From an uncultured archaeon (GTDB taxonomy: Archaea; Asgardarchaeota; Lokiarchaeia; Sigyniarchaeales; SOKP01), in assembly GCA_964583985.1 (NCBI GenBank), contig CAZOYD010000002.1, forward strand, positions 1-64,000: 64,000 bases of DNA, written 5' to 3'. The position numbers and the translations under genes are program-made. Position 1 is the first letter of the stretch. The number at the start of each line of letters is the position of its first letter. The notes under the pieces were generated by a model. The model made no database searches. It had not been told where the DNA came from and worked only from the letters and a program-made list of their open reading frames with translations. Below, one piece after another: positions 1 through 44,314 of this stretch.

Positions 1-1247
1 CGCACGGCAAATCGTCCCATTTCTGGAAAATCTTCATATTTTTCAATGCAGAGTTTCTTTATGGGTTGTAATTTAACGATAGCAGATTCGTTTCGTTTTA
101 TGAATTTGGGTGAATCTTCAATGACAGCACCAGTTTTTTGATCAAGTTTCTTAATTAGTTCTACGAACTTTGCTGCTACTTGAGCGGTATGAGTGTGGAT
201 GACGGGAGTATACCCTTGAGCGAGGGCTGTTGGATGCCAAATGACGATTACTTGTCCAATCCAAAAGCCTTTTGGGGTGACAACAGTTGGTGGATCCTTC
301 GGATGACCCATGCAATCTCCCCTAGAAACATCCTTTAGTTCAATCCCTCTAATACTGAATCCAATATTGTCTCCTGGTACCGCTTCTTGAATTTCCTCGT
401 GATGCATCTCTATGCTTCGGATTTCCCCTTGGAATCCAGTTGGTTGAATGATGACCTTATCACCTTTTTTCAATATTCCAGTTTCTACCTTTCCAACAGG
501 CACTACACCAGTCCCCTTGATTCGATAGGCATCTTGAATAGGAACGCGCAATGCTTTACCCGTAGGTTTTTCTGGAATTACGAAGCTATCAATAGCTTCA
601 ATTAGAGTAGGACCCTTGTACCAAGGCATGTTAGGTGAAGGTTCGGTAAGGTTTTCAGCTTTAAGTCCGCTTACTGGAACGAAGTGGATTTTTTTTACGG
701 GAAAACCAATGTTTCGAAGCAATTCAGAGACTGCAGCGACGCATTCGTTGTATCGTTCTTCTTTGTATTCATAACTGTCTGCTTTATTTATGGCAACAAC
801 TAGTTGCTTTATGCCCAAAGTTTGAGCCAAGTAAGCATGCTCTCTGGTTTGACCGTTAGCTGCAATGCCCACTTCCATATCTCCTTTCTTTCCAGAAACG
901 ACAAGAACTGCGGCATCAGCTTGAGAGGCACCAGTGATCATGTTCTTTACGAAGTCAGCATGACCTGGAGCATCAATGATGGTGAAGTATTTAGAATTGG
1001 TTTCAAACTTTCGGAATGCTAAATCAATTGTAATACCTCTTTGACGTTCTTCTTTAAGGCGATCAAAGACATAGGCATATGACCAAGATTCACGATCGTA
1101 TTCCTTTGCTAGCTTTTCAAGCTCACGGGCTTCTCTATCTGAGATAGCTCCCGTTTTAATGAGCAGTGCGCCCATCATCGTTGATTTACCGTGATCTATG
1201 TGACCAATTATTACGAGATTTAAGTGCGGCTTATCTTTTCCTGACAT
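1..1247 (-). CDS. tuf: Translation elongation factor EF-1alpha (3' end runs off window)
   Basis: Not in the ORF track. Manual translation from ATG at 1247 gives MSGKDKPHLNLVIIGHIDHGKST...RGITIDL...DAPGHADFVKNMITGASQAD...INKAD, and MGRFAVR at the window edge is in the same frame. Confidence 0.97.
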   Translation of the reverse strand, partial: MSGKDKPHLNLVIIGHIDHGKSTMMGALLIKTGAISDREARELEKLAKEYDRESWSYAYVFDRLKEERQRGITIDLAFRKFETNSKYFTIIDAPGHADFVKNMITGASQADAAVLVVSGKKGDMEVGIAANGQTREHAYLAQTLGIKQLVVAINKADSYEYKEERYNECVAAVSELLRNIGFPVKKIHFVPVSGLKAENLTEPSPNMPWYKGPTLIEAIDSFVIPEKPTGKALRVPIQDAYRIKGTGVVPVGKVETGILKKGDKVIIQPTGFQGEIRSIEMHHEEIQEAVPGDNIGFSIRGIELKDVSRGDCMGHPKDPPTVVTPKGFWIGQVIVIWHPTALAQGYTPVIHTHTAQVAAKFVELIKKLDQKTGAVIEDSPKFIKRNESAIVKLQPIKKLCIEKYEDFPEMGRFAV

Positions 1248-1508
1248 TTTCAATCAATTTCCTTATTTTAATTTCAAAACAATATTTAAGAGTACTTTAA
1301 AAATAATTCTGAAATACAGTTTGAATAAGCAATTTAATGATATAAAATATATATTTTTTACGATAATTTTTAGCATGTTTTTGATAAAATCATGAGGGAT
1401 AAATGAAGTATGGTTCTTTTTCATTTTTCCCAGCGCGATCCTCCAATTGTTTATTTGATTTTTTTCATGGAAAAGGGTAAATTTTATGAAAATTGGAAGG
1501 TTCGAAAG

Positions 1509-1955
1509 CTAAAGCAGATCTTCGATTAATTCCAATTGATGTTCTTTAAATAATGCAAATATTTCATTTAATTCATCCATGAAATTGATGCAATTGCCAT
1601 TTTCATCCATAATCTCTGATTGCACTTTGTTGTTCAAAAATTTTGCAAACACGAGATCTAAATCATTTAGATTTAATCGTGTTTCTTTAAAAAAATCTAA
1701 GAGGTGATGAATATAAAAAGCTTTAACGTACATTTTCTCCTTGCTATATTGTTTTTCTAGATCTTTTTGATAAAAGAACTTTAATTGCCGTGATGCGTTG
1801 GTCTCTTCTTCATCAATATTGCTTCGGGCTTCATTAGAAAATGCCCATTCTGTTCCATAATCTATATTTTGATTGACATAATTTGCAATCAAACGATCGA
1901 TTTTTGCTTTATCTGTCCATTTACCATGTATGACCCAATTTGGCATTTTTTTCAT
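1509..1955 (-). CDS. Hypothetical protein, possible small metal-dependent hydrolase
   Basis: 148-aa ORF. N-terminal MPNWVIH and internal HHLLD loosely resemble Zn-dependent hydrolase ligand motifs. Confidence 0.5.
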   Translation of the reverse strand: MKKMPNWVIHGKWTDKAKIDRLIANYVNQNIDYGTEWAFSNEARSNIDEEETNASRQLKFFYQKDLEKQYSKEKMYVKAFYIHHLLDFFKETRLNLNDLDLVFAKFLNNKVQSEIMDENGNCINFMDELNEIFALFKEHQLELIEDLL

Positions 1956-2110
1956 GAGAATTTATAAAAGTGCTGTGATAAAAAATAGAGATAAAATAAT
2001 AAATTTTAAGGCATGAAAGCCAAAAATAAAAAACAATAACTGCTTACTGATCTTAAATTGCATGATATGCAATAATTTTAATATTAAAGTTATACTTCTG
2101 TTGATTCCCC

Positions 2111-2935
2111 ATGGTTAGAAATAAAACACAATTCCCAAAAGAAGGAGATTTTGTCATCGGTCGCGCAGTGAACATTCAAGATCAATATATTTATGTGGAT
2201 TTAACGGACTATGAAGGATTGCCTTCAGAAGAATTTGCTCAAGGGATGATTCACATAAGTGAAATTTCTAGTCGTTGGATAAAAAACATTAGAAATTATG
2301 TTAGGATCGGACAAGTTATTGTATGCCGAGTCTTAAAGGTAGATCCTTCAAAAGGACACATCGATCTTTCACTACGAAGAGTAAACTCAGCGCAAAAAAA
2401 GAAAGTCGCCAAAGAAAGGAAATATGCCGTAAAATTTGACAACATCCTGCAGTTCTTAACTGAAACTGAAGGAGTAAACATGACATTAGATGAAGCGTGG
2501 GAGAAAATCGGGTGGCCTTTATTGGATAATTTAAAATTTTATCAAGAAACTATTGAAACCCTGAAAGAAAATGGTGATGAAATCGTTTCAGAGCTAACAG
2601 ATATTCCCGATGATATCAAGAAGAAATTCCTTCAAGTTGTAAACGAGAATGTGGAAATCACCACGGTAAGGATATCTGGGAAGATCAAACTTATTAACAG
2701 GAAAGGCGATGGAATCGATCGAATCAAGGATACCCTGAAAAGCGTTATCGAAGTCGTAAAAAATCCTCGAGAAACGCGAAAACTCGATATCACGTATCTT
2801 GGAGCACCATACTATAGAATGGAAGTGATATCTAAGGATTATCTTGATGCGGAAGGCATTATTTCTGATGCAATAGATGTCTTAGATACTAAGATGGTGG
2901 AACATGAGGGGATATTTGAATTCGTAAGAGATTAA
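2111..2935 (+). CDS. eif2a: Translation initiation factor 2 alpha subunit (aIF2alpha)
   Basis: S1 domain with GMIHISEISSRWIKNIR, KGHIDLSLRRV, C-terminal YLGAPYY. Confidence 0.96.
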   Translation: MVRNKTQFPKEGDFVIGRAVNIQDQYIYVDLTDYEGLPSEEFAQGMIHISEISSRWIKNIRNYVRIGQVIVCRVLKVDPSKGHIDLSLRRVNSAQKKKVAKERKYAVKFDNILQFLTETEGVNMTLDEAWEKIGWPLLDNLKFYQETIETLKENGDEIVSELTDIPDDIKKKFLQVVNENVEITTVRISGKIKLINRKGDGIDRIKDTLKSVIEVVKNPRETRKLDITYLGAPYYRMEVISKDYLDAEGIISDAIDVLDTKMVEHEGIFEFVRD

Positions 2936-2955
2936 AACAAGAAGAAGGAATCATC

Positions 2956-3153
2956 ATGGTAAAATATCTCTTAAAATGTAAGGAATGCAAGCAATATGGT
3001 CTCAATAATCCAGAAAATACCGCAAAATGCTCGCATTGTGGAGGTCAACTGCTAAATCCGAGACCGTCAAAATATTCACCTATCGATAAGTATGGAAAAT
3101 ATCGGCGGGAATATTTCAAAGAAGATTTTAAAAAGAGATTTGAGAAAGATTAA
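2956..3153 (+). CDS. nop10: H/ACA RNP protein Nop10
   Basis: CxxC..CxxCGG zinc ribbon plus PSKYSPIDKYGKYRR; usual position after aIF2alpha. Confidence 0.93.
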   Translation: MVKYLLKCKECKQYGLNNPENTAKCSHCGGQLLNPRPSKYSPIDKYGKYRREYFKEDFKKRFEKD

Positions 3154-3800
3154 GGTAAATCTATTTTTTCAGCGAACTTTTCATTTATTAATATGATTGC
3201 GTTTTTGTAAGGCATGTTAATGACATCCTCCTTTTCAAAAGGACCATAATTTTTCATATCAACACCGACCAATGGAGGAGAATTCTTCACCATCCGGATG
3301 AGAGTATACTGATAATCAGTTTCCTCTTGAAAGGAGTCAGACTTTATAGGTTCTATTTTCACAGGAACTTCCAAATTATCCTTCTCTAACGACAATGTGG
3401 AAGATTCTTCAGAGATTGATTTCTCTATTGGTCTTTCTGGGAGAGGTGCAATATTGATTTTATCATAAGTTTTAAAGGAACCCACGAGATTTTGATAAAA
3501 TTTTTTTTCATGTTCGATCAGATGGTTAAGATTAATTTCTTCCAAATTCATAGCTGAATTAATTATCTTTATCTTCCTGACATGCAAAAAATCATCAAAA
3601 AGATAATTAAAATTTTTTCTAAATTCTTTTATGAGTCGGATTTTTATTGGATCATTGTCATTTAGATTAAAATCGTTGATTTTAGACTTAATTTCTTGAT
3701 ATCTAAGAAAAGTTTCTTCAGCTAAATCAATGAGATTCACTTGTTCTATTTCATTTTTCCATTGATTATATAGATCCTCATAATCTTTTTTGAAGTTCAT
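3150..3800 (-). CDS. GINS complex subunit Gins51 (Gins15)
   Basis: Helical A domain (RKIKII) plus C-terminal B domain VGVDMKNYGPFEKEDVINMPYKNA; directly downstream of priS. Confidence 0.88.
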   Translation of the reverse strand: MNFKKDYEDLYNQWKNEIEQVNLIDLAEETFLRYQEIKSKINDFNLNDNDPIKIRLIKEFRKNFNYLFDDFLHVRKIKIINSAMNLEEINLNHLIEHEKKFYQNLVGSFKTYDKINIAPLPERPIEKSISEESSTLSLEKDNLEVPVKIEPIKSDSFQEETDYQYTLIRMVKNSPPLVGVDMKNYGPFEKEDVINMPYKNAIILINEKFAEKIDLP

Positions 3801-3856
3801 CTAAATCTCATTTGATATGATATATAAAACAAGTTTACATACAATTAATTTTTAAC

Positions 3857-5173
3857 TCATATAATTTTTGCTACACCTTTACACAACAGAAATACGGCTA
3901 TGTGATGGGGAACTTCAATTTTCTCACCCCGTTCATATTCTCCATATGTTTCTCCTTTAATTTTTGTTAAGGGCACTTTTAATGAGGTGATTTCCAATTT
4001 CTGAGTGACATTTTTCTTACTTTTAAATACAATCGGGTCAATAAGTTCATTACTCTCATCTAATGGGTTAAATTCATCAAGTTGGGCATACTTAAGTTCC
4101 TGAACCTTAAACCCTGTTTTTCCATGTAAGGTTCCCGGATATCTGATGAGTCGGTGGATATCAATTGATACCGGTTCATCGATCTCAGCACCAACCTTCT
4201 TTATTACCGCTCTAAGTACTTTTTTCCACGTGGGCAAGCCAAACCCTTCTATTGCCCATATATTTCGCTGGTTATTATTGATAGTCTCTAAAAAATCTTC
4301 TCGATATTTCAATAAACTGTTAATTTGAGCGGAATTTAAACCACCAAAATGAGGATCACGCAAGAAATGATCTATTTCAAGGGCATTCAATCGTAAAATC
4401 TCCTCAAGTTTCGTCATTATCTTGTTTGACCAGCCTTGGTTTTCTTTTAAAAGCCCAATTATACCAGAGGATTTTTCACGTAACCCTAAAATTTCTAATG
4501 ATAAGTTTTCCCCGGTCAGGTAATCAACTATTTCTCTTCGCTGTTCACTAGTTAACGTCCTGATTCTTGGATCTTCGATCTTTAAATGATATCCCCGGTG
4601 GCCTGAGAATGCTATTTTGATTTGTTCAACATTTAGCGCAAAATCAGGTACCAGATAATTATCTATTAATTTTAGGATTTCCTTCTTGGTAAAATCTAAG
4701 CACTTATCACATATCCACGCAACACGTGTAATCCTTGATTTTTCACAGTTAGGACATTTTTCAGTCATACCCGTGCCATTCTTTCCACAATCATTACAAT
4801 ACCAAAGATCGTGATCGTTTTTACAATCGGTATAAAAATGATCCACATCAATATCTATTACAAAATCACAACCAAGATACCCCTTATCATCCATATCTTT
4901 TTTATCCGGGTGAGCATAAAGAGTTCCGCTTGAATAGGCGTGCTTTGGACTTTTTTGAATTAGAAATTGCCTTAACCCATCAATTCTTTTAAATCCTTCA
5001 TGTCTTTGCATGTGTTGATAATCCCATAGAAGAAATCCAAATTCTCTTTGATCCAGCAAGCTTACTTCTGGAATAATATTCTTGGGTTCTTGATAATAGG
5101 CTTGGAACAAATTCCGAAGAAAAATTTCATCACTCAATTTTCTTTTTTGGTTTAACCTCCTCTTTAGGTCCAT
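3857..5173 (-). CDS. priS: DNA primase catalytic subunit PriS (true start probably TTG at 5137)
   Basis: REFGF, DIDVD, FSGHRGYH, IDEPVSIDIHRLIRYPGTLHGKTG motifs; Cys-rich insertion. Confidence 0.96.
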   Translation of the reverse strand: MDLKRRLNQKRKLSDEIFLRNLFQAYYQEPKNIIPEVSLLDQREFGFLLWDYQHMQRHEGFKRIDGLRQFLIQKSPKHAYSSGTLYAHPDKKDMDDKGYLGCDFVIDIDVDHFYTDCKNDHDLWYCNDCGKNGTGMTEKCPNCEKSRITRVAWICDKCLDFTKKEILKLIDNYLVPDFALNVEQIKIAFSGHRGYHLKIEDPRIRTLTSEQRREIVDYLTGENLSLEILGLREKSSGIIGLLKENQGWSNKIMTKLEEILRLNALEIDHFLRDPHFGGLNSAQINSLLKYREDFLETINNNQRNIWAIEGFGLPTWKKVLRAVIKKVGAEIDEPVSIDIHRLIRYPGTLHGKTGFKVQELKYAQLDEFNPLDESNELIDPIVFKSKKNVTQKLEITSLKVPLTKIKGETYGEYERGEKIEVPHHIAVFLLCKGVAKII

Positions 5174-6317
5174 GTTTTCGATATTGTTTTAATTGCACGT
5201 AAAATAAGGGGTGTTGGATCTTTTTCTGAGAATTATTTTTTTTAGAAAAATACCCTTCCAAGCATAACTCATCATTATATTGCTTTGCCATGCAGAGGCT
5301 ATATGATTTTAATGTAGAACAAGAGTGGGGTGAATATTCCTTCTTTTTGGCAAATTGCACCTGATATTCCGTTTTCTTTCTATCAAAATCGGGTAATTGT
5401 GCAAACAAGTTTACAATCTCATCAATTGGAATTTCTAAAGAATGTAAAAAGAAAACAAGAAATAATCTTTCAATATGAGTTATATTTTGTCCTTGATCAA
5501 TCTTTAAAAGGATTTCGGCAACGCAAGGAGGAAAACTTTCTTCTACTTTTTCTCCTTTTTTATACTTAATTTCAAATGAAAATTCAAATTCTTCCTTCTT
5601 TAACTCCCATTCACCCAGAATTCTCTCGTTGAGTTCTCTGATTTCTTCGACTTGTAAAGCTCTTTTCGTAAAAGCTTCTAAACTGGCAAGATCTTTCTCT
5701 TGTTGAATTATTATCTTTTTTCTTATGACCTCTTGTAATAGACGAATTAAATCTTTTTTTTCAATCAGCACATATCCTTCAACTAAAGGGTTATGAACGA
5801 GCTTTCGATAATCATCTCTTAAATTAGATGCAAGCCGAAGGTAATCAATATAATGAATGCTGAATTGTGTTTGAAGCACTTGCTTTCCATTCTTATCTAA
5901 AATTAATCCAAAAGGAACTGGTTTATCGTAATATTTAATATCTAATTCCAAATCTTTACAAATAGAAAATAAATCGGAATCATTATTTTCTTTGATCATT
6001 TTATGATACATGTGTTTAGAATATAGGTTAGCAACTCTATTTGCAATTGGTATGCTATTATTCAGGTAAAGTAGAATTTTTAAAATGGTATAAAGAGAGA
6101 CGTTCAGCTCGTCTGCTTTATAATTTTTTATTTCTTCTAGGTTTTCAAAAGCGGTTTTAAATATACTAAAAATTCGATCCACTAATTCCCCATCGGGGTA
6201 TTCTGCTATTTTTTCCTTGATAAATTCCACAGGATCTTTTTCAGTCATCTCCGAATAATAAATATTCTTAGAAGGTAACCAAGGATAGTGTTTTATTAAC
6301 TCGTATGAGATGTCCAA
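5130..6317 (-). CDS. priL: DNA primase large subunit PriL
   Basis: YPW N-terminus, FPPC, HIER, Fe-S cysteines in YSPHSCSTLKSYSLC...C, HPL; overlaps priS. Confidence 0.93.
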   Translation of the reverse strand: MDISYELIKHYPWLPSKNIYYSEMTEKDPVEFIKEKIAEYPDGELVDRIFSIFKTAFENLEEIKNYKADELNVSLYTILKILLYLNNSIPIANRVANLYSKHMYHKMIKENNDSDLFSICKDLELDIKYYDKPVPFGLILDKNGKQVLQTQFSIHYIDYLRLASNLRDDYRKLVHNPLVEGYVLIEKKDLIRLLQEVIRKKIIIQQEKDLASLEAFTKRALQVEEIRELNERILGEWELKKEEFEFSFEIKYKKGEKVEESFPPCVAEILLKIDQGQNITHIERLFLVFFLHSLEIPIDEIVNLFAQLPDFDRKKTEYQVQFAKKKEYSPHSCSTLKSYSLCMAKQYNDELCLEGYFSKKNNSQKKIQHPLFYVQLKQYRKHGPKEEVKPKKKIE

Positions 6318-6785
6318 ATCAACATCGACTCCTTTTGAATTGTTCCTTCATCATGGTATGAAAAAATAAAGCAGATAAATAAGTAAATACTGAATAAAAT
6401 TTCTAAATAAATGTGTAATTACGATAAATAAATTAAAAAAATGTCTTGGAAATTTCAACGTACAACGCATTCTTTGATAGTCTTTTATTTTTTTACGATA
6501 ATTAAATTAAAAAATGAATGTTAAAATAAATGTAAAAAGTTTTCTACTGAGATTATCAAATAGAAAATAATAAATAACTAAAATAGTAAAATGAGATATA
6601 AAACAGAAATTTCCTTATCTCTTAAAATGAATAAAAAACAGTAAATATTTGAAAACCATAAGAAAAAATACCAGATTTTTTCTTAAGTAGAGAATAAAAA
6701 GTAATACTCATTCAGCGTCTCTCTTGGAAATTTTTATATACGTAATTATTCTAGTAGTACTTAACCAAAATCAAAATCAATTTTA

Positions 6786-8471
6786 TTGATAAAAATGAAA
6801 GAAGATATCAAATACTTATTACTTTCAGTTTTAATCTTTCCTATACTATTAATCATTGGGTTGAGTGTCTCATTTATGATATCGAGATTCATGCCTGGAG
6901 ATCCAGTTTTAGCATATCTTCCGGAGGGAACATTCACCATGACACAGTATCTACAAATGAAAGAAATCTTGGGGCTCAATGATCCCCTTATAATACAATT
7001 TATTAGATATTCACTAAACATGCTTTCTGGTAACTGGGGACTATCACTATCAATTGCACACTCTACACCAGTATTAGAATTAGTTTCACAAACGTTTCCT
7101 CGCACTTTAGATCTTTTATTTCTCCCATTATTAGTAAGCTTAGTGATAGGATATTATATTGGCAAGATCTCATTAAAAAGAACCGAATTAACAAATAGAG
7201 TGATTCAAATTGTTTCACTCCTGATTCTTGCTATACCAATAATGATAATCGGGATTGGATTTCAATTCTTTTTAGGTGGTATGTTTCCAATTTCTGGATA
7301 CAAAACTGTAGGGTCGGATGATCCCCCTTTTGTTTCTGGATTCCGTATAATTGACTCGATGTTATCAGGACAGTCGTACATTATCTCTGATTATTTATAT
7401 CATTTGATTTTACCTTGGATTACGTTAACGATTGTATTAGTTCCGCTCATAATTTTTCTCACTAGATCATATTTTTTAAACAGAAGATCTGAGCCCAGTT
7501 TACATCTTAAGTACCCCGTCGCCTCAATCTTGGCCACTGTCGCATTAGGTTATGGAATGGTAATGTCATTCACATTTTTGGTTGAAGGGATTTTTGGATT
7601 AAATGGATTTGGTCAATTATTAATCGCCGCAATTCATAACTCTGATAATTGGGTACTTAATATATTTGGGTTCATTTTTCCTCTAATTTTCACTTTCTTA
7701 ATATCCGGAAGCATGCTCCTGCTCACATTATACAGTTATATCAAGGGTGATCGTACAAATAATTTTAAATCAAATGAAATGGAAAGGAAAGAAAAAGATA
7801 TAACAGTTAAAAACGATAAACTCCGAAGTTTATATTTCCAGAACTTTAAAACTGATATACATGACCTTGGAAAAGACTTACTCGTAAAATTGAAATTGCC
7901 TTATACAATTATTGGGCTAGGAATAACAATTTTCGCAGTTATATTATATTTTATATTTGCATTACCAATCTCACTCATTTCGGTCTTTGTCTTTATTAGC
8001 GTAAGCTATGGTTTAATTGGAGGTTTAATTATTGGTTCTTTATTTAATCTGGTGAGAAATCGATATAAACGATCATTAGATGGCATGTTGATTCCGTTTT
8101 TCATGTATCCCATAATATTTACTGGATTTTTTAGTAGTTTAATCTTTATTCCATTTTTAGACATGGGAATGCAATATTTATTTATGGAATCAATCTATGG
8201 GATGATGCTAATACCAATCTTTGCGTTAATCATTACAAAAGCTAAATTTAATTTCGTAGCGATTTTGAAACAATTAATACCTTACATTCCGCTCATGATG
8301 GGATTCGTTTTAACAATAGATACGTATTTAGGATTTTTAGTATATTCTAGCACTATTCTTGGGGGTGATTTTTATATAGCACTTTTCATATTACTGTTGG
8401 GTTTTTACCTTCTTTATGTGGGATTAAGTCAGATTCCAAGAGAAATTCAAGAAATTAAGAGCGACATTTAA
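6786..8471 (+). CDS. Orphan peptide/nickel ABC transporter permease (DppB-like N-half fused to a second hydrophobic region)
   Basis: MPGDP, GLNDPLIIQF..Y..GNWGLS, HLILP, VEGIFGLNGFGQL motifs of DppB/OppB; ~220 further hydrophobic residues. Confidence 0.75.
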   Translation: MIKMKEDIKYLLLSVLIFPILLIIGLSVSFMISRFMPGDPVLAYLPEGTFTMTQYLQMKEILGLNDPLIIQFIRYSLNMLSGNWGLSLSIAHSTPVLELVSQTFPRTLDLLFLPLLVSLVIGYYIGKISLKRTELTNRVIQIVSLLILAIPIMIIGIGFQFFLGGMFPISGYKTVGSDDPPFVSGFRIIDSMLSGQSYIISDYLYHLILPWITLTIVLVPLIIFLTRSYFLNRRSEPSLHLKYPVASILATVALGYGMVMSFTFLVEGIFGLNGFGQLLIAAIHNSDNWVLNIFGFIFPLIFTFLISGSMLLLTLYSYIKGDRTNNFKSNEMERKEKDITVKNDKLRSLYFQNFKTDIHDLGKDLLVKLKLPYTIIGLGITIFAVILYFIFALPISLISVFVFISVSYGLIGGLIIGSLFNLVRNRYKRSLDGMLIPFFMYPIIFTGFFSSLIFIPFLDMGMQYLFMESIYGMMLIPIFALIITKAKFNFVAILKQLIPYIPLMMGFVLTIDTYLGFLVYSSTILGGDFYIALFILLLGFYLLYVGLSQIPREIQEIKSDI

Positions 8472-8763
8472 ATTATTTTTTTTTTACTTTTTTGAAAAAG
8501 GATCTTTTATGATTCAGTATCACACGTAACTTATATAAGAACGAGAAATTCTGCTATAGCTTCGATTGAAACTAGGAATACCGAATGAGGTAAAATCACC
8601 CCAAATAAAAATGATGGATATATAGAATATGAGATTTTAAGGGGGTGGCTTCTAATCATTCTATTTTTTCTAAATTTTCAAAAAAAATGTGATGGTCTAT
8701 ATCATAAAGAACTTATAGGATAGAAAAAAAGGGATCTTAAAATTTCTAAATAAATGATTTTGG

Positions 8764-8992
8764 CTAAAAATCATCCACGTCCTCATTGTCATCTTCATCT
8801 TCTTCATGTTCGACTCTTGGTGCCAGAAATAGTGATAATTCACAATCGTTTTCCAATTTAAAAATGATTTTTAGAGGGTAATCCGATTTTAAGCCCATTT
8901 CTAAATTCATGGTGATTGATGATATTTTCAGGATGGCTTTTAAGAACTCGAGATTATAGGAGCCAATGCAAGTCTCATTAATATTGTTAGAA
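8764..8992 (-). pseudogene. Duplicated 3' end of the PCNA gene (direct repeat of 12389-12617)
   Basis: Manual alignment: ~229 bp, 10 mismatches, perfect core ~8798-8946. Encodes SNNINETCIGSYNLEFLK...EDVDDF* with no in-frame start upstream of the homology. Confidence 0.93.
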
Positions 8993-9160
8993 GGTATGTG
9001 AGAGAAGTAAGATTTTAGCTTTATTAAAATTTAGACTGATTCAAATTTGTAATTAAATCGGACCTTTTTAAAGCTTTCATAATAATCTGGGACTAAACTC
9101 ATAAAAAATTGGAAGATAATATCCTTTTTTCAGATTATTTTAGATGAAAGTGATTTCACT

Positions 9161-10771
9161 TCATTTAAGTATTTTTGTCAATCTTAAGAGATATTCACCG
9201 TGAGAGATTTGTTTGGATTTTAATTCTTCAGAGAGTTCCTTCAATTGTGTTAAATTTTCCATTAGATCCTCTCTAAATTCCACGGATTCAAATAATTCTC
9301 CAATGATTGATTTCACATTTTCTCTTTCAGCATCAATTTTTCTCTCCTCTACATTCAGTAAGTCAAAATCTCGCTTATATTGTTTAATGTACTCATAAAG
9401 ATTTAGGCAAAAAGCGTCCATTTTTTCAGTTTCACCGTCAAATTCAAAGCCGAGCTTATCACTTAAATCAAAATAACTGTATCCTCCCCCATTCAAGTCG
9501 ATTTGTTTTAAATCTTCAAATCCAATGTCAGTTCCTTTTATTGGAATGATCTTAATACCATTGGTCAAGGCTAAAACGAGCTCATGCCGACTCTGAATAT
9601 CAGTAATCGAACTATTAGTAGCAATGAATAATAATAGATGGCTATCAGAAACGTCATTCTCTCCGCTACTATACACGTCAAGAATCTCTTCTTGTTCTTT
9701 TAATCTTTTCTTGAGGCCATTCACATTATATTTATTTTTATCATCTTTCGAATGGCTGATAAAAATTATAATAGGCGTTTTTCCTCTGCAAAACTTTAGG
9801 ATTGCGGGAGTATCTAAATTTGTTATATCCTTCCATTCATCATCCCACGGGTTGCCATACAAATGAGTATAATTTAGATTCTTACATCTCCCAAAGGAAA
9901 GCGGGAGAGATGACAACTGATTATAACCTATACTTAGTCTTTGGAGAAAGGAGAGGTCACCTATCGACTCCGGAAGAAATGTTAAATTATTCTTACTCAA
10001 ATGAAGTATTTTAAGTGATTTTACGAGACCTATCGCCTCGGGGAGAGTCTTTAAATTGTTATTTTCCATTTCTATGCTTTCGAGAGCTTTTAGCTTTGTT
10101 ATTGACTCCGGAAGAGAAGTGAATTGATTATTCTCTAAATCAAGTTTCTTAAGCGAGGAGAGGTTCCCTATAGAATCCGGTAGAGTTTTTAACTTATTAT
10201 TCTTCAAATTAAGTTCCTTAAGCGAGGAGAGGTTCCCTATGGAATTCGGGAGAATAGTCAACTGGTTATCATATAAATATAGATCCTGTAGCAATTTTAA
10301 ATCCTCTATTGATTCTTGGATATTTCTTAAATAATTACCACTCACCAATAACCGCTCAAGTGATGTTAGCTTTTTTATTGATTCTGGGAGATTTGTTAGC
10401 TTATTGTTACTCAAACCAAGATATTGAAGAGAAGTAAGATTACCTATTGACTCGGAGAGAGTTACTAACTGATTATCAAGAAGTACTAAACTTTCTAGTG
10501 ATTTCAGGTCCCATAATGACTCCGGGAGAGTAAGAAAATTATTTTTCCTTAAACCAAGATATGTGAGGTTGGAGAGATTACTTATCGATTCGGGGAGAGT
10601 CCTCAATCCTTGATTGAAGAGGAATAATCCAACAATGTTATCTCCTTCAACTTTATACCCAAAAATGTCCCATTTAATCTCTTCTATTTGTGGAATGGGT
10701 TTACCTATTATCTTTTCCAATTCTATCAAACATTTCGCTTGTTCGCGCTTTACATTGGATTTTGTTGTCAT
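9161..10771 (-). CDS. LRR-TIR protein 1 (about 11 LRRs + TIR-like domain + helical tail)
   Basis: 23-aa repeats LPESIGNLxxLxxLxLxxNxL, then IIIFISHS...LLLFIATNSS..SRHELVLA...IIPI. Confidence 0.85.
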   Translation of the reverse strand: MTTKSNVKREQAKCLIELEKIIGKPIPQIEEIKWDIFGYKVEGDNIVGLFLFNQGLRTLPESISNLSNLTYLGLRKNNFLTLPESLWDLKSLESLVLLDNQLVTLSESIGNLTSLQYLGLSNNKLTNLPESIKKLTSLERLLVSGNYLRNIQESIEDLKLLQDLYLYDNQLTILPNSIGNLSSLKELNLKNNKLKTLPDSIGNLSSLKKLDLENNQFTSLPESITKLKALESIEMENNNLKTLPEAIGLVKSLKILHLSKNNLTFLPESIGDLSFLQRLSIGYNQLSSLPLSFGRCKNLNYTHLYGNPWDDEWKDITNLDTPAILKFCRGKTPIIIFISHSKDDKNKYNVNGLKKRLKEQEEILDVYSSGENDVSDSHLLLFIATNSSITDIQSRHELVLALTNGIKIIPIKGTDIGFEDLKQIDLNGGGYSYFDLSDKLGFEFDGETEKMDAFCLNLYEYIKQYKRDFDLLNVEERKIDAERENVKSIIGELFESVEFREDLMENLTQLKELSEELKSKQISHGEYLLRLTKILK

Positions 10772-11128
10772 TGATTTTCTCTGCTCCTGAATTTCTTTTT
10801 CATTAAAAAGCTCTTTCTCGAGACTTAAATGGTGTTTTTAAGAATTTTAATGTTATAATTTTTCTTTAAAATTTAAGGTTATGGATCTTAAATCCTGAAT
10901 AGCAGAAATTTTCGGTAATGCTTAAAATTAGCTTCTGGAAACAGATACGCCTTCTCATTAGATAAAACCAAAATTTTTAAAGTGTTTCTGTTTTTTTATT
11001 ATTTCATGCCGGAAAGAAAAAAACAAATTCCTCAAAATTATCATATAAAATCTGAAAAAGCTCAAGCTTTTGAGGATTTAAGCAAACTTATAGGTAAACC
11101 CATTCCACAAATAGAAGAGATTAAATGG
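10670..11128. repeat. Perfect 39-bp inverted repeat (10670-10708 / 11090-11128) in the 5' ends of the two LRR-TIR genes
   Basis: ataggtaaacccattccacaaatagaagagattaaatgg present on both strands (IGKPIPQIEEIKW in both proteins). Confidence 0.9.
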
Positions 11129-12316
11129 AACACATTCGGAATTAAATATGAAGGAGGTAATTTAGTTGGATTAAATTTATATAATCAAGGATTGACGACT
11201 CTCCCCGAGTCAATAGGCAATCTTACTTCTCTGACACATCTTAGATTGAATAATAATCAGTTAACAAATCTCCCCGAGTCAATAGGCAACTTAAAATCAC
11301 TAGAAATTCTTGATTTAAGTACTAATAAATTCACAACATTTCCGGAGGTTGTGTTGAATCTTAAATTTCTTAAACAATTAAGTTTACAGAATAATAGATT
11401 AACGACGCTCCCGGAATCCATTGGGAATCTCACATCACTTAGATACTTAATGGTACATGGAAATGAGTTAATAACTCTCCCTGAGTCGATAGGCAATCTT
11501 TCCTCTCTCGTTATCCTACATATATATATGAATAAATTAAGGAATTTACCTGAATCCTTTTCTCAATTGAAAAACTTGGAGGCTGCTTCTTTAGCAAAAA
11601 ATGATTGGAAGGGAGAATGGCAAGAATTATCATCAAATGACGTTCCAAAAATTTTGAAGCTCTGTCGAAAATTACACGGGATTGATATTTTTATCAGTCA
11701 CGCTATGATAGATCAAGAAGAGTATCCAATCATTGAGCTCAATAAAAATTTGGAGAAATGTGAAGAAGTCCATAACGTGCATCTCTGTGAGGAAGATTTA
11801 AGAGATAGCATAAAAGCTTTTATGGATAATAACGTTCCTAAAAGCCAATTATTGATATTCATTGGTACGAAGAATTCCCTCAATTCTAAAGATTGTCTAT
11901 ACGAACTCTCATTAGCAAAAAAATTCAGCATTAAGATTTTACCTATCAGAGGAAATGACATATCTGTGGAAGATTTAAAGCAAATTGATTTGAGAGAGCA
12001 CGAGCAAGATTTTTTAGATTTAAGTATATTGAATGTTTTTGAATTCAATACTGAAGTTTTCGATAAGCTCCATGAGTATATTTCGAGCCATCAATCTGAA
12101 TTGAAAATGTTTAAAAAAGAACAAGAAAAACTTGAAGATGAGAAATCAAATATGTGGAAAAATCTCATGGATTTCGCAGATTCTAATGAATTTACGGAAC
12201 AATTAAAAGATAATTTCGAAGAATTCCAAAAGATTTTTCAAGATGTAAGGAACGATCGAATTACTAATTTAGAATATATTTTGAAATTAGGACAAATTAT
12301 TAGTAAAAACAATTGA
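10982..12316 (+). CDS. LRR-TIR protein 2 (about 6 LRRs + TIR domain + helical tail; likely start ATG 11006)
   Basis: LPESIGNL repeats, then IDIFISHA...LLIFIGTKNSLNSKDCLYELSLA...ILPI. Confidence 0.87.
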   Translation: MFLFFYYFMPERKKQIPQNYHIKSEKAQAFEDLSKLIGKPIPQIEEIKWNTFGIKYEGGNLVGLNLYNQGLTTLPESIGNLTSLTHLRLNNNQLTNLPESIGNLKSLEILDLSTNKFTTFPEVVLNLKFLKQLSLQNNRLTTLPESIGNLTSLRYLMVHGNELITLPESIGNLSSLVILHIYMNKLRNLPESFSQLKNLEAASLAKNDWKGEWQELSSNDVPKILKLCRKLHGIDIFISHAMIDQEEYPIIELNKNLEKCEEVHNVHLCEEDLRDSIKAFMDNNVPKSQLLIFIGTKNSLNSKDCLYELSLAKKFSIKILPIRGNDISVEDLKQIDLREHEQDFLDLSILNVFEFNTEVFDKLHEYISSHQSELKMFKKEQEKLEDEKSNMWKNLMDFADSNEFTEQLKDNFEEFQKIFQDVRNDRITNLEYILKLGQIISKNN

Positions 12317-12388
12317 TTCTAAATCCTCCAAATCTCAAAAACAAAAAAAAATGAAGCTAGGAATGAAAACTATATCAAATTTATTAAT

Positions 12389-13204
12389 TTAAAAATCATC
12401 CATGTCCTCATTGTCATCTTCGTCTTCTTCATGTTCGACTCTTGGTGCCAGAAATAGTGATAATTCACAATCGTTTTCCAATTTAAAAATGATTTTTAGA
12501 GGGTAATCCGATTTTAAGCCCATTTCTAAATTCATGGTGATTGATGATATTTTCAGGATGGCTTTTAAGAAATCGAGACTGTAGGAGCCCATGCAGGTTT
12601 CATTAATATTGCTAGAACGTAAATCTTCAAGATCGAGAAAATACTCCATTTCACCTATCGTTCCTATTGAGGAGAACAAGAGTCCTTCTCCTTCAGTAGC
12701 CTTTAAACTTAGCACTTCTGAGTAAATCTCCGCGTCTTTTATCGCTTCTACTAAAAATGCAGGTTCTATTTCCCAGTTAGTATTATATTCTATTTCATAT
12801 AATCTATCCAAGTGAAGATTTTCAATTTCGTTTTCTGAAAGTGCTAAACTAAAAGTACGCGTCAATTTTTTCTCTTCATCGGTTGTGCGTTGCAATTTTA
12901 TTTTTATTTTGTTATCTGCTTCCTTGAATGCTATTTCAAGCGAATCATTTAAAGTACTCCTCTTGAGGATCTTATCCAAATCATCTATATTTAGATCGAT
13001 ATCCAATTTCTTATCGCAAGAAAATTCATCGAAATCTTCCCCCTTGATCTTAAGCTGTAACAAACAAATACGACTATCGTCAAACGCAAGTATCGTTAAT
13101 CCCTTAGGGGTGATCTTGAACTTAGCCTCAGTGACAATACTCGCGAGAGTTTCGATAATGACTCTTAAGACCCGACTTTTATCTAATTTTAACGAAAATG
13201 ACAT
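12389..13204 (-). CDS. pcn: DNA polymerase sliding clamp PCNA with acidic tail
   Basis: AFDDSRICL, DLDKILKR, YSLDFL, DYPLKI, FLAPRVE motifs. Confidence 0.95.
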   Translation of the reverse strand: MSFSLKLDKSRVLRVIIETLASIVTEAKFKITPKGLTILAFDDSRICLLQLKIKGEDFDEFSCDKKLDIDLNIDDLDKILKRSTLNDSLEIAFKEADNKIKIKLQRTTDEEKKLTRTFSLALSENEIENLHLDRLYEIEYNTNWEIEPAFLVEAIKDAEIYSEVLSLKATEGEGLLFSSIGTIGEMEYFLDLEDLRSSNINETCMGSYSLDFLKAILKISSITMNLEMGLKSDYPLKIIFKLENDCELSLFLAPRVEHEEDEDDNEDMDDF

Positions 13205-16426: not shown

Positions 16427-18382
16427 TTATTTTATGAATAACGCATTCATTTTGGATGTTTTTAATAAATTCAATAAGTTCAACCGACTTGCATCATCAT
16501 CAATGTCTTGAAAATAAAAAAAGTTCCCCCCATCAAGTATTGATTGGAATTTTTTAAACAATTCAAGCTGTTTATCGATTGGTAGAGTCGTTTCTTGTCT
16601 AATAATGGAACTAGAATAATATTTTGACTTTAATGAAGGATCAATAGGATTGTTATTGGAAAAATTTATCAAATGATGGGGTTGAGTTAAGACATAATTT
16701 TCTTCTAATCTTTTATTTTTTTTGATGATCCTTTGCTTTATTTTCCCCAATACTTTCAAGGAAAAATTCTCACTAACTTCAATTCGATCCAACTCAATTC
16801 CACAATGATGTTCTATTGCCTCGTTTAATCCTATAAAGCTTACTGCTTTTGTTGAATATTTTATGAGATTTTCTGGCGTGTCATTAAAATATGTCTCACA
16901 TGCATTAATCCAACGCTTTTGAGAATTCAATTTCTGGTTAACTAACTCTTTTTTAATTTCAAAAAACTTGAATACGTTAGAAACTTGCTCGTGCAGATTT
17001 TCTTCAAAAATATCATCATCTCCATTTGAATTTATTGCGATTTTATGCAAGTTTATCAAAATCTTGTCGAGGATTATATGATTAGCATTGAGCGGTTCTT
17101 GGAGAGGACGTGCTTTTTTTATACTAATCGCAGTTGAATTTAATGCTCCAGTCATTTCTTTGCTATAAAAAAGAACATTATTTTCAAGTTGTGTAAGGAT
17201 TTGATGGTAATCTAAAAGATCCATGCCCACATATTCAAATAAAATAAGTGGAAGAACGTTTACCAAATTTGATGTGCATCCCTTAATCATGCAATCGAAA
17301 AATGATCCAACTTCAGTTTTGCATTCTTTCTTGTTAAATGAAAAATCTAAAGATATTGCTGGTCCAGCATTGAGAAAAGCATTATTGTGGTTGTTTAATT
17401 TAAGCAATTCCAGTACTAAAAATGTAAATGTTGACTCATCATGTCCTTTCAAGTAAGGTAATAGGGCACTATCGAAATTACCCAGAACTATATCTTCAGA
17501 TAAATATGGATGAATACTTGAAACGCTCGTCATGAATGAGTGAATCAAGCGGAAAATCTTTCGAGGATCATTCGAATTATTTTGCATGTCAAGATTTTCT
17601 TTGTCAATTCCATCCAAAAATGTATTGGTATTTATATAAGCACCAAGTGGCCGTAAACTCCAATAATTCAAGTTTAAAAGAATGATATCTCCAGAAAGAT
17701 ATGAATCGGCAAGATCTCTCGGCAGTAAATTCAGAAGTATAAATTGTTCTGAGACGTCAGATCCAAGTTCATGGATAAACTGTTCCGGATTAAGGTGAAG
17801 GTTGTTAAATAATTTCTTAACTTCAAAAGGAGGAGTCCCTAAACGTGTTAATCTATGTCTCACGTGTTCTAATCCATTTTCTAATAAAATTCCATTTATA
17901 TATTCACGCATTAGGGGAGTGGTTAAATATTCTACTTGAGTTCGAGATAATCTATTGCTGACTTCATTTGCAATTTGCTTAGCTTGAAATAGTTCCATTC
18001 CCCCCTCTCTTACTAAATATTCCTCAATATTTCCAATATTAAAGGGTTCTGTCGAATATCTTGAAGTACGGATCATTATGGATTTATCTTGATCGGCAAG
18101 AATCTGTTCCATTGAAACCATATTTCCTAAAATTTTCTTGCCCAATGAAGTTAGGAGGTAACCTTCATCAGATGTTTCTATCAAATCGTTTGTTTTTAGT
18201 ACTTTAAGATGAAAGGAAAAATTTACTGAATTGGGATTTGATCCTAAGACTTGTTTTTGAAGCAAGGAATAACTGATAGGAATCGAGCTTTTATCCAGGT
18301 TCTTTAAAATATCTATTCTAATCTTTTGACCTAATATTTTTAATTGATGTTCTAACAAGTCACTGTTTTTGTCGGAATGCAC
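16427..18382 (-). CDS. Winged-HTH + ATP-cone + degenerate class III RNR (NrdD)-like protein
   Basis: ArsR-like N-terminus (RIDILK..SFHLKVL..YLLTSLG); ATP cone (IRTSRYSTEPF...YLTTPLMREYIN..LLENG); NrdD-like RHRLTRLGTP, LLPRDLADSYLSGDI, INL, FIGLNE, GGN. No C-terminal Zn or glycyl-radical motif. Confidence 0.7.
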   Translation of the reverse strand: MHSDKNSDLLEHQLKILGQKIRIDILKNLDKSSIPISYSLLQKQVLGSNPNSVNFSFHLKVLKTNDLIETSDEGYLLTSLGKKILGNMVSMEQILADQDKSIMIRTSRYSTEPFNIGNIEEYLVREGGMELFQAKQIANEVSNRLSRTQVEYLTTPLMREYINGILLENGLEHVRHRLTRLGTPPFEVKKLFNNLHLNPEQFIHELGSDVSEQFILLNLLPRDLADSYLSGDIILLNLNYWSLRPLGAYINTNTFLDGIDKENLDMQNNSNDPRKIFRLIHSFMTSVSSIHPYLSEDIVLGNFDSALLPYLKGHDESTFTFLVLELLKLNNHNNAFLNAGPAISLDFSFNKKECKTEVGSFFDCMIKGCTSNLVNVLPLILFEYVGMDLLDYHQILTQLENNVLFYSKEMTGALNSTAISIKKARPLQEPLNANHIILDKILINLHKIAINSNGDDDIFEENLHEQVSNVFKFFEIKKELVNQKLNSQKRWINACETYFNDTPENLIKYSTKAVSFIGLNEAIEHHCGIELDRIEVSENFSLKVLGKIKQRIIKKNKRLEENYVLTQPHHLINFSNNNPIDPSLKSKYYSSSIIRQETTLPIDKQLELFKKFQSILDGGNFFYFQDIDDDASRLNLLNLLKTSKMNALFIK

Positions 18383-42921: not shown

Positions 42922-43149
42922 TTACTCGTCTTCCTCATCCCAACCGAGATCCTTTAGAATTGATTCAAAAGCTTCTGATTCTTTATCCAAAACAAATTCA
43001 TTCTCATATTCTGATGCGGGTCCCAGAAATTGGTTATTGAAATCATGAGGTTTCAGGTCGATGAGAGGCAGTAGAAACTCTACAGGTATTGGTCCTTGTA
43101 CTATTTTTGGTTCTTGCACCGATTAATCCTCTACTATTTCCATTGGGGC
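42922..43149 (-). pseudogene. Diverged duplicate of the 3' end of the adjacent roadblock gene
   Basis: APMEIVED*SVQEPKI...EFVLDKESEAFESILKDLGWDEEDE versus TPMEIEEDASVDEPII...EFVLDEESEAFESILKDLGWDEDEEK; in-frame TAA at 43123-43125. Confidence 0.8.
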
Positions 43150-43339
43150 ATGTAGGTTCCCTTCAAGAAATTATTACAAATTCAAATTCCAAAACAAATA
43201 ATTATATGAAATCACTTTGAGATTTCGAATGCGTATTTAAAAAAAGAAAGTTGATTAATCCTTGATTTAAAGAGCCTTTAGAAAAATATTCATTTTAAAA
43301 ATATTTTCGAAAAATTTTAAGATTTGTGAAAGAGGAAAT

Positions 43340-44314
43340 TTACTTTTCCTCATCTTCATCCCATCCAAGATCCTTTAGAATGGACTCAAAAGCCTCAGAT
43401 TCTTCATCTAATACAAATTCAACCTCATATTCAGGAGCTGCCTCAAATTCACCTTCAAAATTTGGAGGTGTTAATTCATCGAAGGAAGGTAAAGGACTAG
43501 TTGATATAGGTTCTTGATATATTATAGGTTCATCAACAGATGCATCTTCTTCAATTTCCATGGGAGTGTAATCTTCAAGAGGAATAGGAGGGATCTCATC
43601 ATCATATACCTTAAATTGGGAACTTGAATCCATTTGAACATGTTCTTGACGCTCAATTGTATCCCTTTCGATAGGGGATTCAACTGCTTTCTCATATTCC
43701 ATACCAATGGATTTTGGGATTGATACGATGTTGTTAGGAGGAGTTGTTTCTAGTTCACTCTCATCAACGCCTTCTTTTTCCCAAGTATCTAAAAATCCGA
43801 GTAAATCATCTAATGCTGCTTTATCTTGCTCCACAGATGGTTTGATTACTGATAATTCTTCTTCATCTATTTGGATCCCTAATTTCGCTTTTTCAGAATC
43901 GTCAAGAGACAGCGTCATTTCAGTGATTTTATCCCCCGAAATCAAACGATTTAGCTTTTTTGCCAATTCTCGTAGATATCCTAAGTAGTATCCGATTCTA
44001 AAGACATTTTTTAATCCCCCAAATACGATATATTCATCATTTATAGCTAATAGAATGCTATAACCAAAAGTATTATGAAGAATTATCTCCGTAAGCGCTC
44101 CGTGGGCTGTCGCTTCGCTTAATCGTAAACCTAGATCAATCAGTGCAGTACTTGAAGCAGAAGTTGCATCTGCATCTAATTCAGATGATGTAGCGGAAGC
44201 AACTTTGATTCCTACTCTTGAAAGAACTGCTAAATTCTCTAAATCTGTTTTTTTTTCCTCATTACTGAGGATATTCATCATGTTTTCTCTTATATCTTGA
44301 GCGAGGGACGACAT
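43340..44314 (-). CDS. Roadblock/LC7 domain protein with long acidic, Pro-rich tail
   Basis: AVLSRVGIKVAS...SASSTALIDLG...GALTEIIL..GYSILLAI..IGYYLGYLR pattern; D/E/P-rich C-terminal half. Confidence 0.78.
   Translation of the reverse strand: MSSLAQDIRENMMNILSNEEKKTDLENLAVLSRVGIKVASATSSELDADATSASSTALIDLGLRLSEATAHGALTEIILHNTFGYSILLAINDEYIVFGGLKNVFRIGYYLGYLRELAKKLNRLISGDKITEMTLSLDDSEKAKLGIQIDEEELSVIKPSVEQDKAALDDLLGFLDTWEKEGVDESELETTPPNNIVSIPKSIGMEYEKAVESPIERDTIERQEHVQMDSSSQFKVYDDEIPPIPLEDYTPMEIEEDASVDEPIIYQEPISTSPLPSFDELTPPNFEGEFEAAPEYEVEFVLDEESEAFESILKDLGWDEDEEK

Follow-up and report, generated by a model that had tools for sequence, protein, structure and literature searches.

Tn7 inserts at attTn7, downstream of glmS, by its TnsD pathway: the element lands beyond the stop codon of an essential, conserved gene, at a short and constant distance, leaves that gene intact and, in bacteria, places its right end next to glmS. 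There is one such site per genome, and decayed elements and mini elements with varied cargo accumulate at it. Defence hotspots of bacteria are flanked by core genes and are exchanged by homologous recombination. Here we describe the interval between the PCNA gene and priL in an uncultured Lokiarchaeia archaeon (Sigyniarchaeales; SOKP01; GenBank assembly GCA_964583985.1), in which the end of PCNA occurs twice, around two genes with leucine-rich repeats (LRR) and TIR-like tails; the window is the whole stretch analysed, positions 1 to 64,000 (64,000 nt) of contig CAZOYD010000002.1. Archaeal Tn7-family elements, many of them from Asgard archaea, have a fused tnsAB, TGT ends, 5-bp duplications and attachment sites at housekeeping genes (bioRxiv 10.1101/2025.07.27.667033). 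The sites named in that preprint are tRNA genes, nrdD, a DNA methylase gene and a radical-SAM gene, and one element was shown to be active in E. coli, in which a mate-out assay has been used for a Heimdallarchaeota element; the main text makes no mention of PCNA, primase or the sliding clamp. Our literature search on Tn7, PCNA, archaea and transposons found no paper describing such a site, and an attachment site at PCNA appears to be unreported; the search also returned no archaeal defence hotspot at replication genes. The best explanation of the locus overall, to which we give a probability of about 0.6, is a Tn7-like attachment site that holds an island built in at least three steps and bears a one-off recombination scar.

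The source genome is a 3.8-Mb metagenome-assembled genome (MAG) of 138 contigs with 5.25% estimated contamination. An initial annotation of the window had recognized the PCNA repeat and taken it as the border of an integrated LRR-TIR cassette. Repeat search, pairwise alignment and self-megablast confirm the direct repeat and refine it to 8765-8996 (copy A) against 12390-12621 (copy B), 232 bp at 95.7% identity and 3625 bp apart from start to start; in a self-megablast of the whole 3.8 Mb, no other direct repeat with kilobase spacing was found in the MAG. Ten mismatches separate the copies (8778, 8797, 8947, 8954, 8956, 8965, 8971, 8974, 8987 and 8993), and an eleventh difference is the final base of the stop codon at 8764 (TAG in copy A, TAA in copy B). 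The reported clustering of the mismatches around a perfect core of about 149 bp is equally real: all ten lie no more than 50 nt from one edge or 34 nt from the other, and the longest perfect run is 149 bp (P = 2.3e-4 for 10 randomly placed mismatches, by simulation). The two LRR-TIR genes do lie between the copies without a recombinase, as had been stated, together with a piece of spacer (9027-9140) and a filler (8997-9026). Empty PCNA-priL sites, which the initial annotation had thought worth seeking, exist in two sister species (G022 and G001), where window 1-6413 (GINS, priS, priL and spacer) is joined straight to 12388 (PCNA stop). Because these species lack it, window 6414-12387 (~6 kb) is an insertion. 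The integrated unit is thus an insertion as claimed, but its size is about 6 kb and not 3.6 kb, and it is composite, containing a dead Tn7-like transposon. The elements of the repeat and of the native locus are as follows.

12389..13204, minus strand: intact PCNA gene, 271 aa (Pfam PCNA_N, PCNA_C).
12390-12621, minus strand: repeat copy B, the last 232 bp of the intact PCNA gene.
8764..8996, minus strand: repeat copy A, the last 76 PCNA codons plus the stop TAG; a pseudogene-like fragment, open and in the frame of PCNA.
8738..8763, minus strand: S_A, 26 nt of native spacer, matching the empty-site sequence of G022 and G001.
6318..6413, minus strand: rest of the native spacer, on the upstream side of priL; the second copy of a 19-mer (6395-6413) stands at its start, and it is collinear with G022, G001, G006 and L056.
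3150..6317, minus strand: block of priL (5130..6317), priS (3857..5173) and GINS51 (3150..3800) (Pfam DNA_primase_lrg, DNA_primase_S, Gins51_C); conserved right flank of the predicted attachment site.

The gene order TFS-OB-PCNA-priL-priS-GINS is kept in every locus of the genus that spans the region, two short contigs stopping inside or at PCNA, and homology to relatives continues upstream of PCNA with no break; the PCNA protein of the window is 90-96% identical to those of G006, G022 and G001. PCNA and priL are ~60-190 nt apart in 21 of the 23 genus loci; of the remainder, G007 has two foreign genes in the interval and the G004 contig ends inside PCNA. Assemblies of three relatives break inside or at the 3' end of PCNA (G007 at the end of C103, G004 at the start of C278, G060 at C10 and C161), which fits strain-level differences there.

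The clue to the nature of the site lies in the ends of the foreign DNA. On the priL side, the foreign blocks of the window, of G007 and of two metagenome contigs (L056/L057) share a terminal module ending in ...TTACA, and the block in G007 has 26-nt terminal inverted repeats. A model of this end module (118 nt, sequence-only, built from the window and G007) matches once per genome in 8 of the 134 genomes of the family, and in six of the eight (G000, G007, G148, G089, G085 and G138) the module adjoins priL. One of these genomes, G089, carries an intact Tn7-like transposon of 8,118 bp in the PCNA-priL interval (L098, 3954-12071), with genes running from the module end towards PCNA. Its TnsAB protein (874 aa, L098 9204..11828) is a fusion of TnsA_N, helix-turn-helix (HTH), DDE and Mu-transposase_C parts (Tn7_TnsA-like_N 33 bits, cut-off 26.5; Mu-transpos_C 26.7 bits, cut-off 21.7; HTH_28; an IS481-like DDE region, E 3e-18; a weak rve match), and TniB (152 bits, E 1.7e-44), TniQ (80.6 bits, E 2.3e-22) and DUF6262 are also present. 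The element ends in TGTAACTACGA-type TGT...ACA inverted repeats matching at 25 of 26 nt, has a ~20-nt subterminal motif repeated at both ends and is flanked by a 5-bp target duplication, TTTTC.

The same ends recur in G148, G085 and G007. In G148 both are present, along with a tnsAB scrap, a single gene for a membrane protein and subterminal repeats, three in tandem; the mini-element of G085 (L099, G085:C72, 11992-12323) spans 332 bp, has no genes, consists of the two Tn7-like ends and lacks a matching 5-bp duplication; and G138 has an end, a TniQ scrap and TPR-protein cargo. The cargo is a MarR-like gene (150-aa winged-helix protein, named from sequence) and a 4Fe-4S protein gene in G007, and a winged HTH gene, a membrane-protein gene and a CPBP-protease gene in L056/L057. 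In all six genomes and both contigs the place and the orientation are the same, with the tnsAB end towards priL. The left end lies 21 nt past the PCNA stop in G089, 18 in G085, 10 in G148, ~11 in G007 and 9 in L056. Since this distance varies less than that from the right end to priL (~92-160 nt), the end of PCNA is probably the fixed reference, as glmS is for TnsD, suggesting that TniQ may read the PCNA 3' end. Taken together, the comparisons argue that in these Promethearchaeota (Asgard, Loki-type) archaea a Tn7-like family uses the spacer between PCNA and priL as its attachment site. The expectation that related genomes would show variable cargo with the same repeat in this interval was met by the cargo (in G007, G148, G089, G085, G138 and L056/L057) and not by the repeat, which is absent from them; likewise, PCNA does anchor exchangeable genes, different in each lineage, but seemingly for the main reason that a Tn7-like attachment site lies 9-21 nt past its stop. 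The end module is also found in G088, a genome of another genus (L101, G088:C138, 4060-4175; 57.5 bits), where it is close to the end of a contig, beside an ACP_syn_III-like gene, and neither PCNA nor priL is found within 6.5 kb; the module may mark a second target site there, or the gene order may be different. A tnsAB fragment in G008 is distant from the PCNA gene of that genome.

The PCNA site matches attTn7 in its landing at a fixed distance, its intact target gene, its decayed and mini copies and its varied cargo. It differs in that the cargo (left) end is nearest the target gene and in that the target is a replication gene of eukaryote type; the 232-bp duplication of the target-gene end is not a Tn7 feature. 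With the archaeal Tn7-family elements (10.1101/2025.07.27.667033) the family shares the fused tnsAB, tnsC/tniB, tniQ, TGT ends, a 5-bp duplication, a single orientation by a housekeeping gene, cargo that is often defence related and many incomplete copies. Unlike the sites described there, the present one, seen in two metagenome contigs and six genomes, lies 9-21 nt past the PCNA stop. In G089, G085 and G148 an nrdD-like gene stands on the PCNA side at a distance of 3-5 kb, and the Promethearchaeota element that the preprint places adjacent to nrdD might be at the PCNA-priL locus. In the window, an NrdD-like gene with HTH and ATP-cone domains occupies 16427-18382, and it is also found in L098, L099 and L091, at the same 3-5 kb from the site and on the same side. 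As in bacterial defence hotspots, variable defence-like cargo sits between core genes (PCNA and priL), differs among close strains and mostly lacks a recombinase; the difference is that the hotspot here would be explained by a site-specific transposon family.

The window itself carries a dead remnant of this family, between copy A and priL.

6414..6713, plus strand: Tn7-like right end; tip TGTAATTACGAT at 6414, subterminal repeats at 6420-6439 and 6494-6513, then the tnsAB leader and the first ~17 codons.
6714..8577, plus strand: inserted block of 1,864 bp, a clean insertion in tnsAB codon 17/18; permease-like membrane open reading frame (ORF) at 6786..8471, 561 aa.
8571-8666, plus strand: tnsAB pseudogene scrap 1, TnsAB aa 17-50, with a stop and a gap.
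8668-8712, minus strand: tnsAB pseudogene scrap 2, inverted, TnsAB aa 90-104.

Window 6404-6668 aligns with the right end of G089 at 75% over 266 nt (E 9e-43), and window 6414-6712 with G148 at 84% over 300 nt; the scraps match the G089 tnsAB in blastn (E 1e-9) and, in tblastn, at 56% and 73% identity. The permease-like block is a separate arrival: TACTCATT (at 6713) and ATACCGAATGAGG (at 8578), which stand on its two sides in the window, are contiguous in G089 and G148, where TACTCATT runs unbroken into ATACTGAAC. Its ORF has a weak Pfam BPD_transp_1 match, and its homologues (no more than 55% identity) are multi-copy ABC permeases. A genome-wide search found no homologues of tnsAB, tniB or tniQ elsewhere in the genome, and the right end has no inverted partner anywhere in the 64-kb window. 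A perfect 19-bp direct repeat, CATTTATTTAGAAATTTTA, at 8738-8756 and 6395-6413 brackets this second foreign block, and CATTT flanks the remnant on both sides, embedded in that empty-site repeat. No transposase made the left junction, because 26 nt of empty-site sequence, including the 19-bp repeat, precede the break into tnsAB; it would fit repair or recombination with an unoccupied allele. Other readings of the ends fell away. The right end as a multi-copy miniature inverted-repeat element was rejected, since further matches in the organism's own genome were due to chance or coding sequence and none was a genuine copy; an RNA gene was rejected because the predicted RNA fold of the end module is unstructured (z = +0.99); and integron attC-like sites, casposons and replication-origin boxes were dropped as explanations of the inverted ends once the tns genes had been found.

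Between the two PCNA ends lie the LRR-TIR genes and, next to copy A, two short segments that record how the foreign DNA was joined.

10982..12316, plus strand: LRR-TIR2, 444 aa; LRR repeats, TIR_2 domain and coiled-coil tail (Pfam LRR_8, LRR_14, TIR_2 at 34.3 bits, cut-off 28).
9161..10771, minus strand: LRR-TIR1, 536 aa; Pfam LRR families; divergent from LRR-TIR2, with a 210-bp spacer.
9027..9140, minus strand: X1 (9075-9137) and S' (9027-9072), a ~114-nt copy of the G006-type spacer downstream of PCNA, 93% identical, ending abruptly after GTCTAAATTT.
8997..9026, minus strand: filler of 30 nt, of which 24 nt resemble an LRR-coding unit (NLTSLTYL), an 83-88% match to LRR units of both genes.

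The C-terminal part of LRR-TIR1 scores below the cut-off for TIR_2 (19.5 bits) and is 36% identical to the tail of LRR-TIR2 (E 1.4e-26); LRR-TIR2 has a weak ThsB-like PADLOC match, and its best relative outside the genome is 50% identical. A sequence search of the TIR-like region against the PDB found no close solved structure. From their domain content the pair is predicted to be defence-like. The family of the TIR tail is found, in multiple copies, in 69 of the 120 genomes of the order; because it is so widespread and the best match is only 50% identical, we regard the pair as an accessory gene set without a close orthologue. Paired homologues stand in tandem in G062 and G106, and no PCNA fragment or tns gene lies near the homologue loci of G062, G106 and G021. 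The composition profile of the cargo (GC content 0.27-0.36) is like that of its surroundings and is uninformative.

Read in the sense of PCNA, the order is PCNA (stop at 12389), LRR-TIR2, LRR-TIR1, X1 plus S' (9140-9027), filler, and copy A (8996-8764), followed by 26 nt of native spacer, the foreign block 8737-6414, native spacer again and priL. PCNA homology begins abruptly at 8996. The counterparts of X1 and S' in G006 sit directly after the PCNA stop of that genome. The G006 spacer (L035, G006:C126, 2914-3040) is ~125 nt longer than that of G022 and G001, the extra sequence consisting of X1 and ~50 nt and starting 2 nt past the stop; it may be the footprint of a lost cassette. Archaeal and bacterial integrative elements that target tRNA genes by means of tyrosine recombinases resemble this arrangement, in that 3'-end repeats bracket foreign genes and the target gene stays intact. 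They differ in that here there is no recombinase, both edges of the long repeat are imperfect, one joint is illegitimate with filler, and relatives show no recurrence.

The two PCNA ends do not have equal standing. The five nonsynonymous differences (S>N, M>I, S>N, D>E and M>V) and the change from TAA to TAG are all derived in copy A, at sites that are invariant in seven other PCNA sequences, whereas copy B has synonymous changes only. The earlier view that both copies derive from functional PCNA alleles therefore has to be given up: copy A is decaying like a pseudogene and does not represent a second functional allele. The copies are nonetheless each other's closest kin, because they share window-specific substitutions and a 3-bp indel that are seen in none of G006, G022, G001, L056/L057 and L055. 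Native spacer as in G022 and G001 follows copy A only, and copy A abuts the transposon remnant; it is thus best read as the former working end of PCNA and the former landing site.

From this anatomy we propose the following history. A Tn7-like element would first have inserted directly after copy A, when copy A and the 26 nt of native spacer were still the working end of PCNA. The element would then have decayed, leaving its right end, the first ~50 tnsAB codons and the inverted scrap (codons 90-104), losing its left end and receiving, within tnsAB, the 1.86-kb block with the permease-like gene. In a third step, DNA from a related strain, arranged as PCNA stop, LRR-TIR pair and G006-type spacer (X1, S'), would have recombined in through PCNA homology on one side and through an illegitimate joint at 8996/8997, with the 30-nt filler, on the other. 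We propose a donor with a G006-type spacer because the X1-S' sequence after LRR-TIR1 is 93% identical to the sequence that follows the PCNA stop of G006. PCNA would thereby have gained a new 3' end, and the old 232 bp would have been stranded as copy A; a linear and a circular donor give the same product. Later the edges of copy A would have drifted, while its middle 149 bp either remained the same as in copy B or came to match it, probably by gene conversion, since divergence confined to the edges is the typical residue of conversion between repeats. The initial annotation had suggested integration by homologous recombination or by an integrase acting in trans. PCNA homology is indeed the likeliest anchor, but one of the two joints is illegitimate and there is no recombinase.

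Several points weigh against this history. Both the sequence of steps and the mode of recombination are deduced solely from the final arrangement, and the contig's route through the repeat is known from assembly alone. A donor with PCNA followed by the LRR-TIR pair was not found, the best LRR-TIR homologue being 50% identical, and when PCNA and the sequence upstream of it were compared with four relatives in sliding windows, no clear recombination breakpoint emerged. The polarity of the derived states is unlike that of a simple mosaic of donor and recipient, as copy A also holds two of the three derived states in the 3' flank, and the perfect core of 149 bp requires an extra assumption, either gene conversion or near-identical parents. 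The element in the window has no left end, so the transposition origin of the remnant rests on its homology to G089 and G148, and recognition of PCNA by TniQ is deduced only from the constant distance to the stop codon.

Of the other explanations, the one that survives best is a self-contained cassette of 3625 bp, mobile as a circle that carries a PCNA 3' end and integrating by homologous recombination or by an integrase encoded elsewhere, with PCNA as its regular dock. The direct repeats bracket exactly the two LRR-TIR genes and leave PCNA intact, the interval is empty or holds other cargo in related genomes, and the assembly graph is equally compatible with a chromosome plus a 3625-bp circle. 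A search with the C-terminal 83 residues of PCNA across the 134 genomes of the family found no second match on the same contig in any of the 133 others, in which no circle turned up either, and none of the three metagenome contigs (L055-L057) has the repeat. We conclude from this that the PCNA-end repeat is the scar of a single recombination event, and that no integration system in recurrent use has left it as a signature. The alternative cargos, moreover, are bounded by Tn7-like ends and not by PCNA repeats, and the LRR-TIR pairs of other genera do not stand beside PCNA fragments. No integrase or recombinase lies in or next to the island, where the ORFs of 6414-12388 are the two LRR-TIR genes and the permease-like gene and the flanks are collinear with relatives, and the joint at 8996/8997 looks illegitimate (truncated spacer, 30-nt filler, LRR-like scrap). 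We therefore consider a mobile circle unlikely. The proposal that the repeat permits deletion or amplification of the cassette stands as a possibility: with 232 bp and a 149-bp perfect core, and with no machinery of its own, it can support loss or amplification of the LRR-TIR genes by ordinary homologous recombination.

One metagenome contig lends the circle some plausibility by indicating that PCNA homology travels on mobile DNA. This virus- or plasmid-like contig (L055, Ga0307377_10003906) has a full PCNA gene at 2599-3414, whose product is 88% identical to that of the window, and its homology to the host is confined to that gene. Next to PCNA the contig encodes a Prim-Pol of 924 aa, an MT-A70 methylase, a phosphoesterase, a nucleoside deoxyribosyltransferase-like protein and an RNA ligase interrupted by an intein with a LAGLIDADG domain. 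Across the family, the Prim-Pol is absent from the genus and has 30-35% matches in three genomes of another genus. An element of this type was rejected as the integrator at PCNA, as nothing shows integration there and the L055 PCNA end is not specially close to copy A. An invariant PCNA 22-mer had no match in viral contigs.

An assembly effect, in which the path through the repeat is misresolved or two strains are merged, would make the true state PCNA, old spacer and remnant, with the LRR-TIR genes elsewhere or circular. The 149-bp core is longer than common k-mer sizes, the MAG is fragmented and has some estimated contamination, the breaks in the G007, G004 and G060 assemblies at or inside the PCNA 3' end suggest strain heterogeneity, and swapping the exits of the repeat yields a plausible chromosome in which the PCNA end is followed by native spacer. 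Against this account, false joins usually arise where sequence is shared, but the sequence at the 8996/8997 joint is unique and the 30-nt filler there belongs to neither type of allele. The copies also differ at both edges, which ties each to its own flanks, and the swapped path leaves a 3.6-kb circle without a replication gene. By our reasoning the near-identity of the core is real, as, with a largest assembler k-mer of ~55 (a value that we assume), no more than one or two interior differences could be lost to k-mer collapse. We judge an artefact to be improbable.

We give as little weight to a duplication made by Tn7-like machinery, with the LRR-TIR genes as cargo of a second tandem element or carried, along with the attachment site, by aberrant transposition from a pseudo-end in PCNA. 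The genes do lie on the PCNA-proximal side, where the cargo of G089 lies, the duplicated piece is the presumed attachment site (PCNA 3' end and insertion point), defence-like cargo is typical of Tn7-like elements (discussion of bioRxiv 10.1101/2025.07.27.667033), and one Heimdallarchaeota element holds a 75%-identical copy of the gene that it targets; but neither a TGT end nor a subterminal repeat follows the copy B stop or stands at 8997, the sole end-like sequence in the 64-kb window being at 6414, no 5-bp duplication borders the cassette, the spacer of G006 type found between LRR-TIR1 and copy A is a sign that the donor DNA was chromosomal, and the genome lacks tns genes. It also seems doubtful that the stranded PCNA end still functions, both as a second attachment site and as a handle for homology, so that cassettes could leave as circles and return by way of PCNA homology and a Tn7-like element could insert behind either PCNA end; if true, an essential replication gene would anchor a system for swapping immune genes in Asgard archaea.

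Two further observations concern gene ends and PCNA homologues outside the island. A roadblock gene of the window (43340..44314) has its last 76 codons repeated ~190 nt downstream (42925-43152, minus strand) at 59% protein identity and with an in-frame stop, and this 3'-end copy is a second stranded gene end in the window. ORFs of ~400 aa with weak PCNA-like matches, separate from the regular PCNA, occur in five genomes (G008:C9:313236-314057, G056:C65, G134:C48, G012:C75 and G064:C54).

A Tn7-like attachment site that became a composite island with a recombination scar thus remains our preferred account of the PCNA-priL interval. It leaves the LRR-TIR cassette as a real unit without a mechanism of its own, whose repeat predicts loss or amplification of the two genes and little more. 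For the Tn7 family of Asgard archaea, it would add a precisely mapped, previously unnamed landing site at PCNA, a eukaryote-type replication gene, for which G089 supplies an intact 8.1-kb element with defined ends and a target duplication. Once the transposon dies, such a landing site may become a small island of variable, partly defence-like genes, which recombination between strains would reshuffle, leaving scars in the form of duplicated gene ends.

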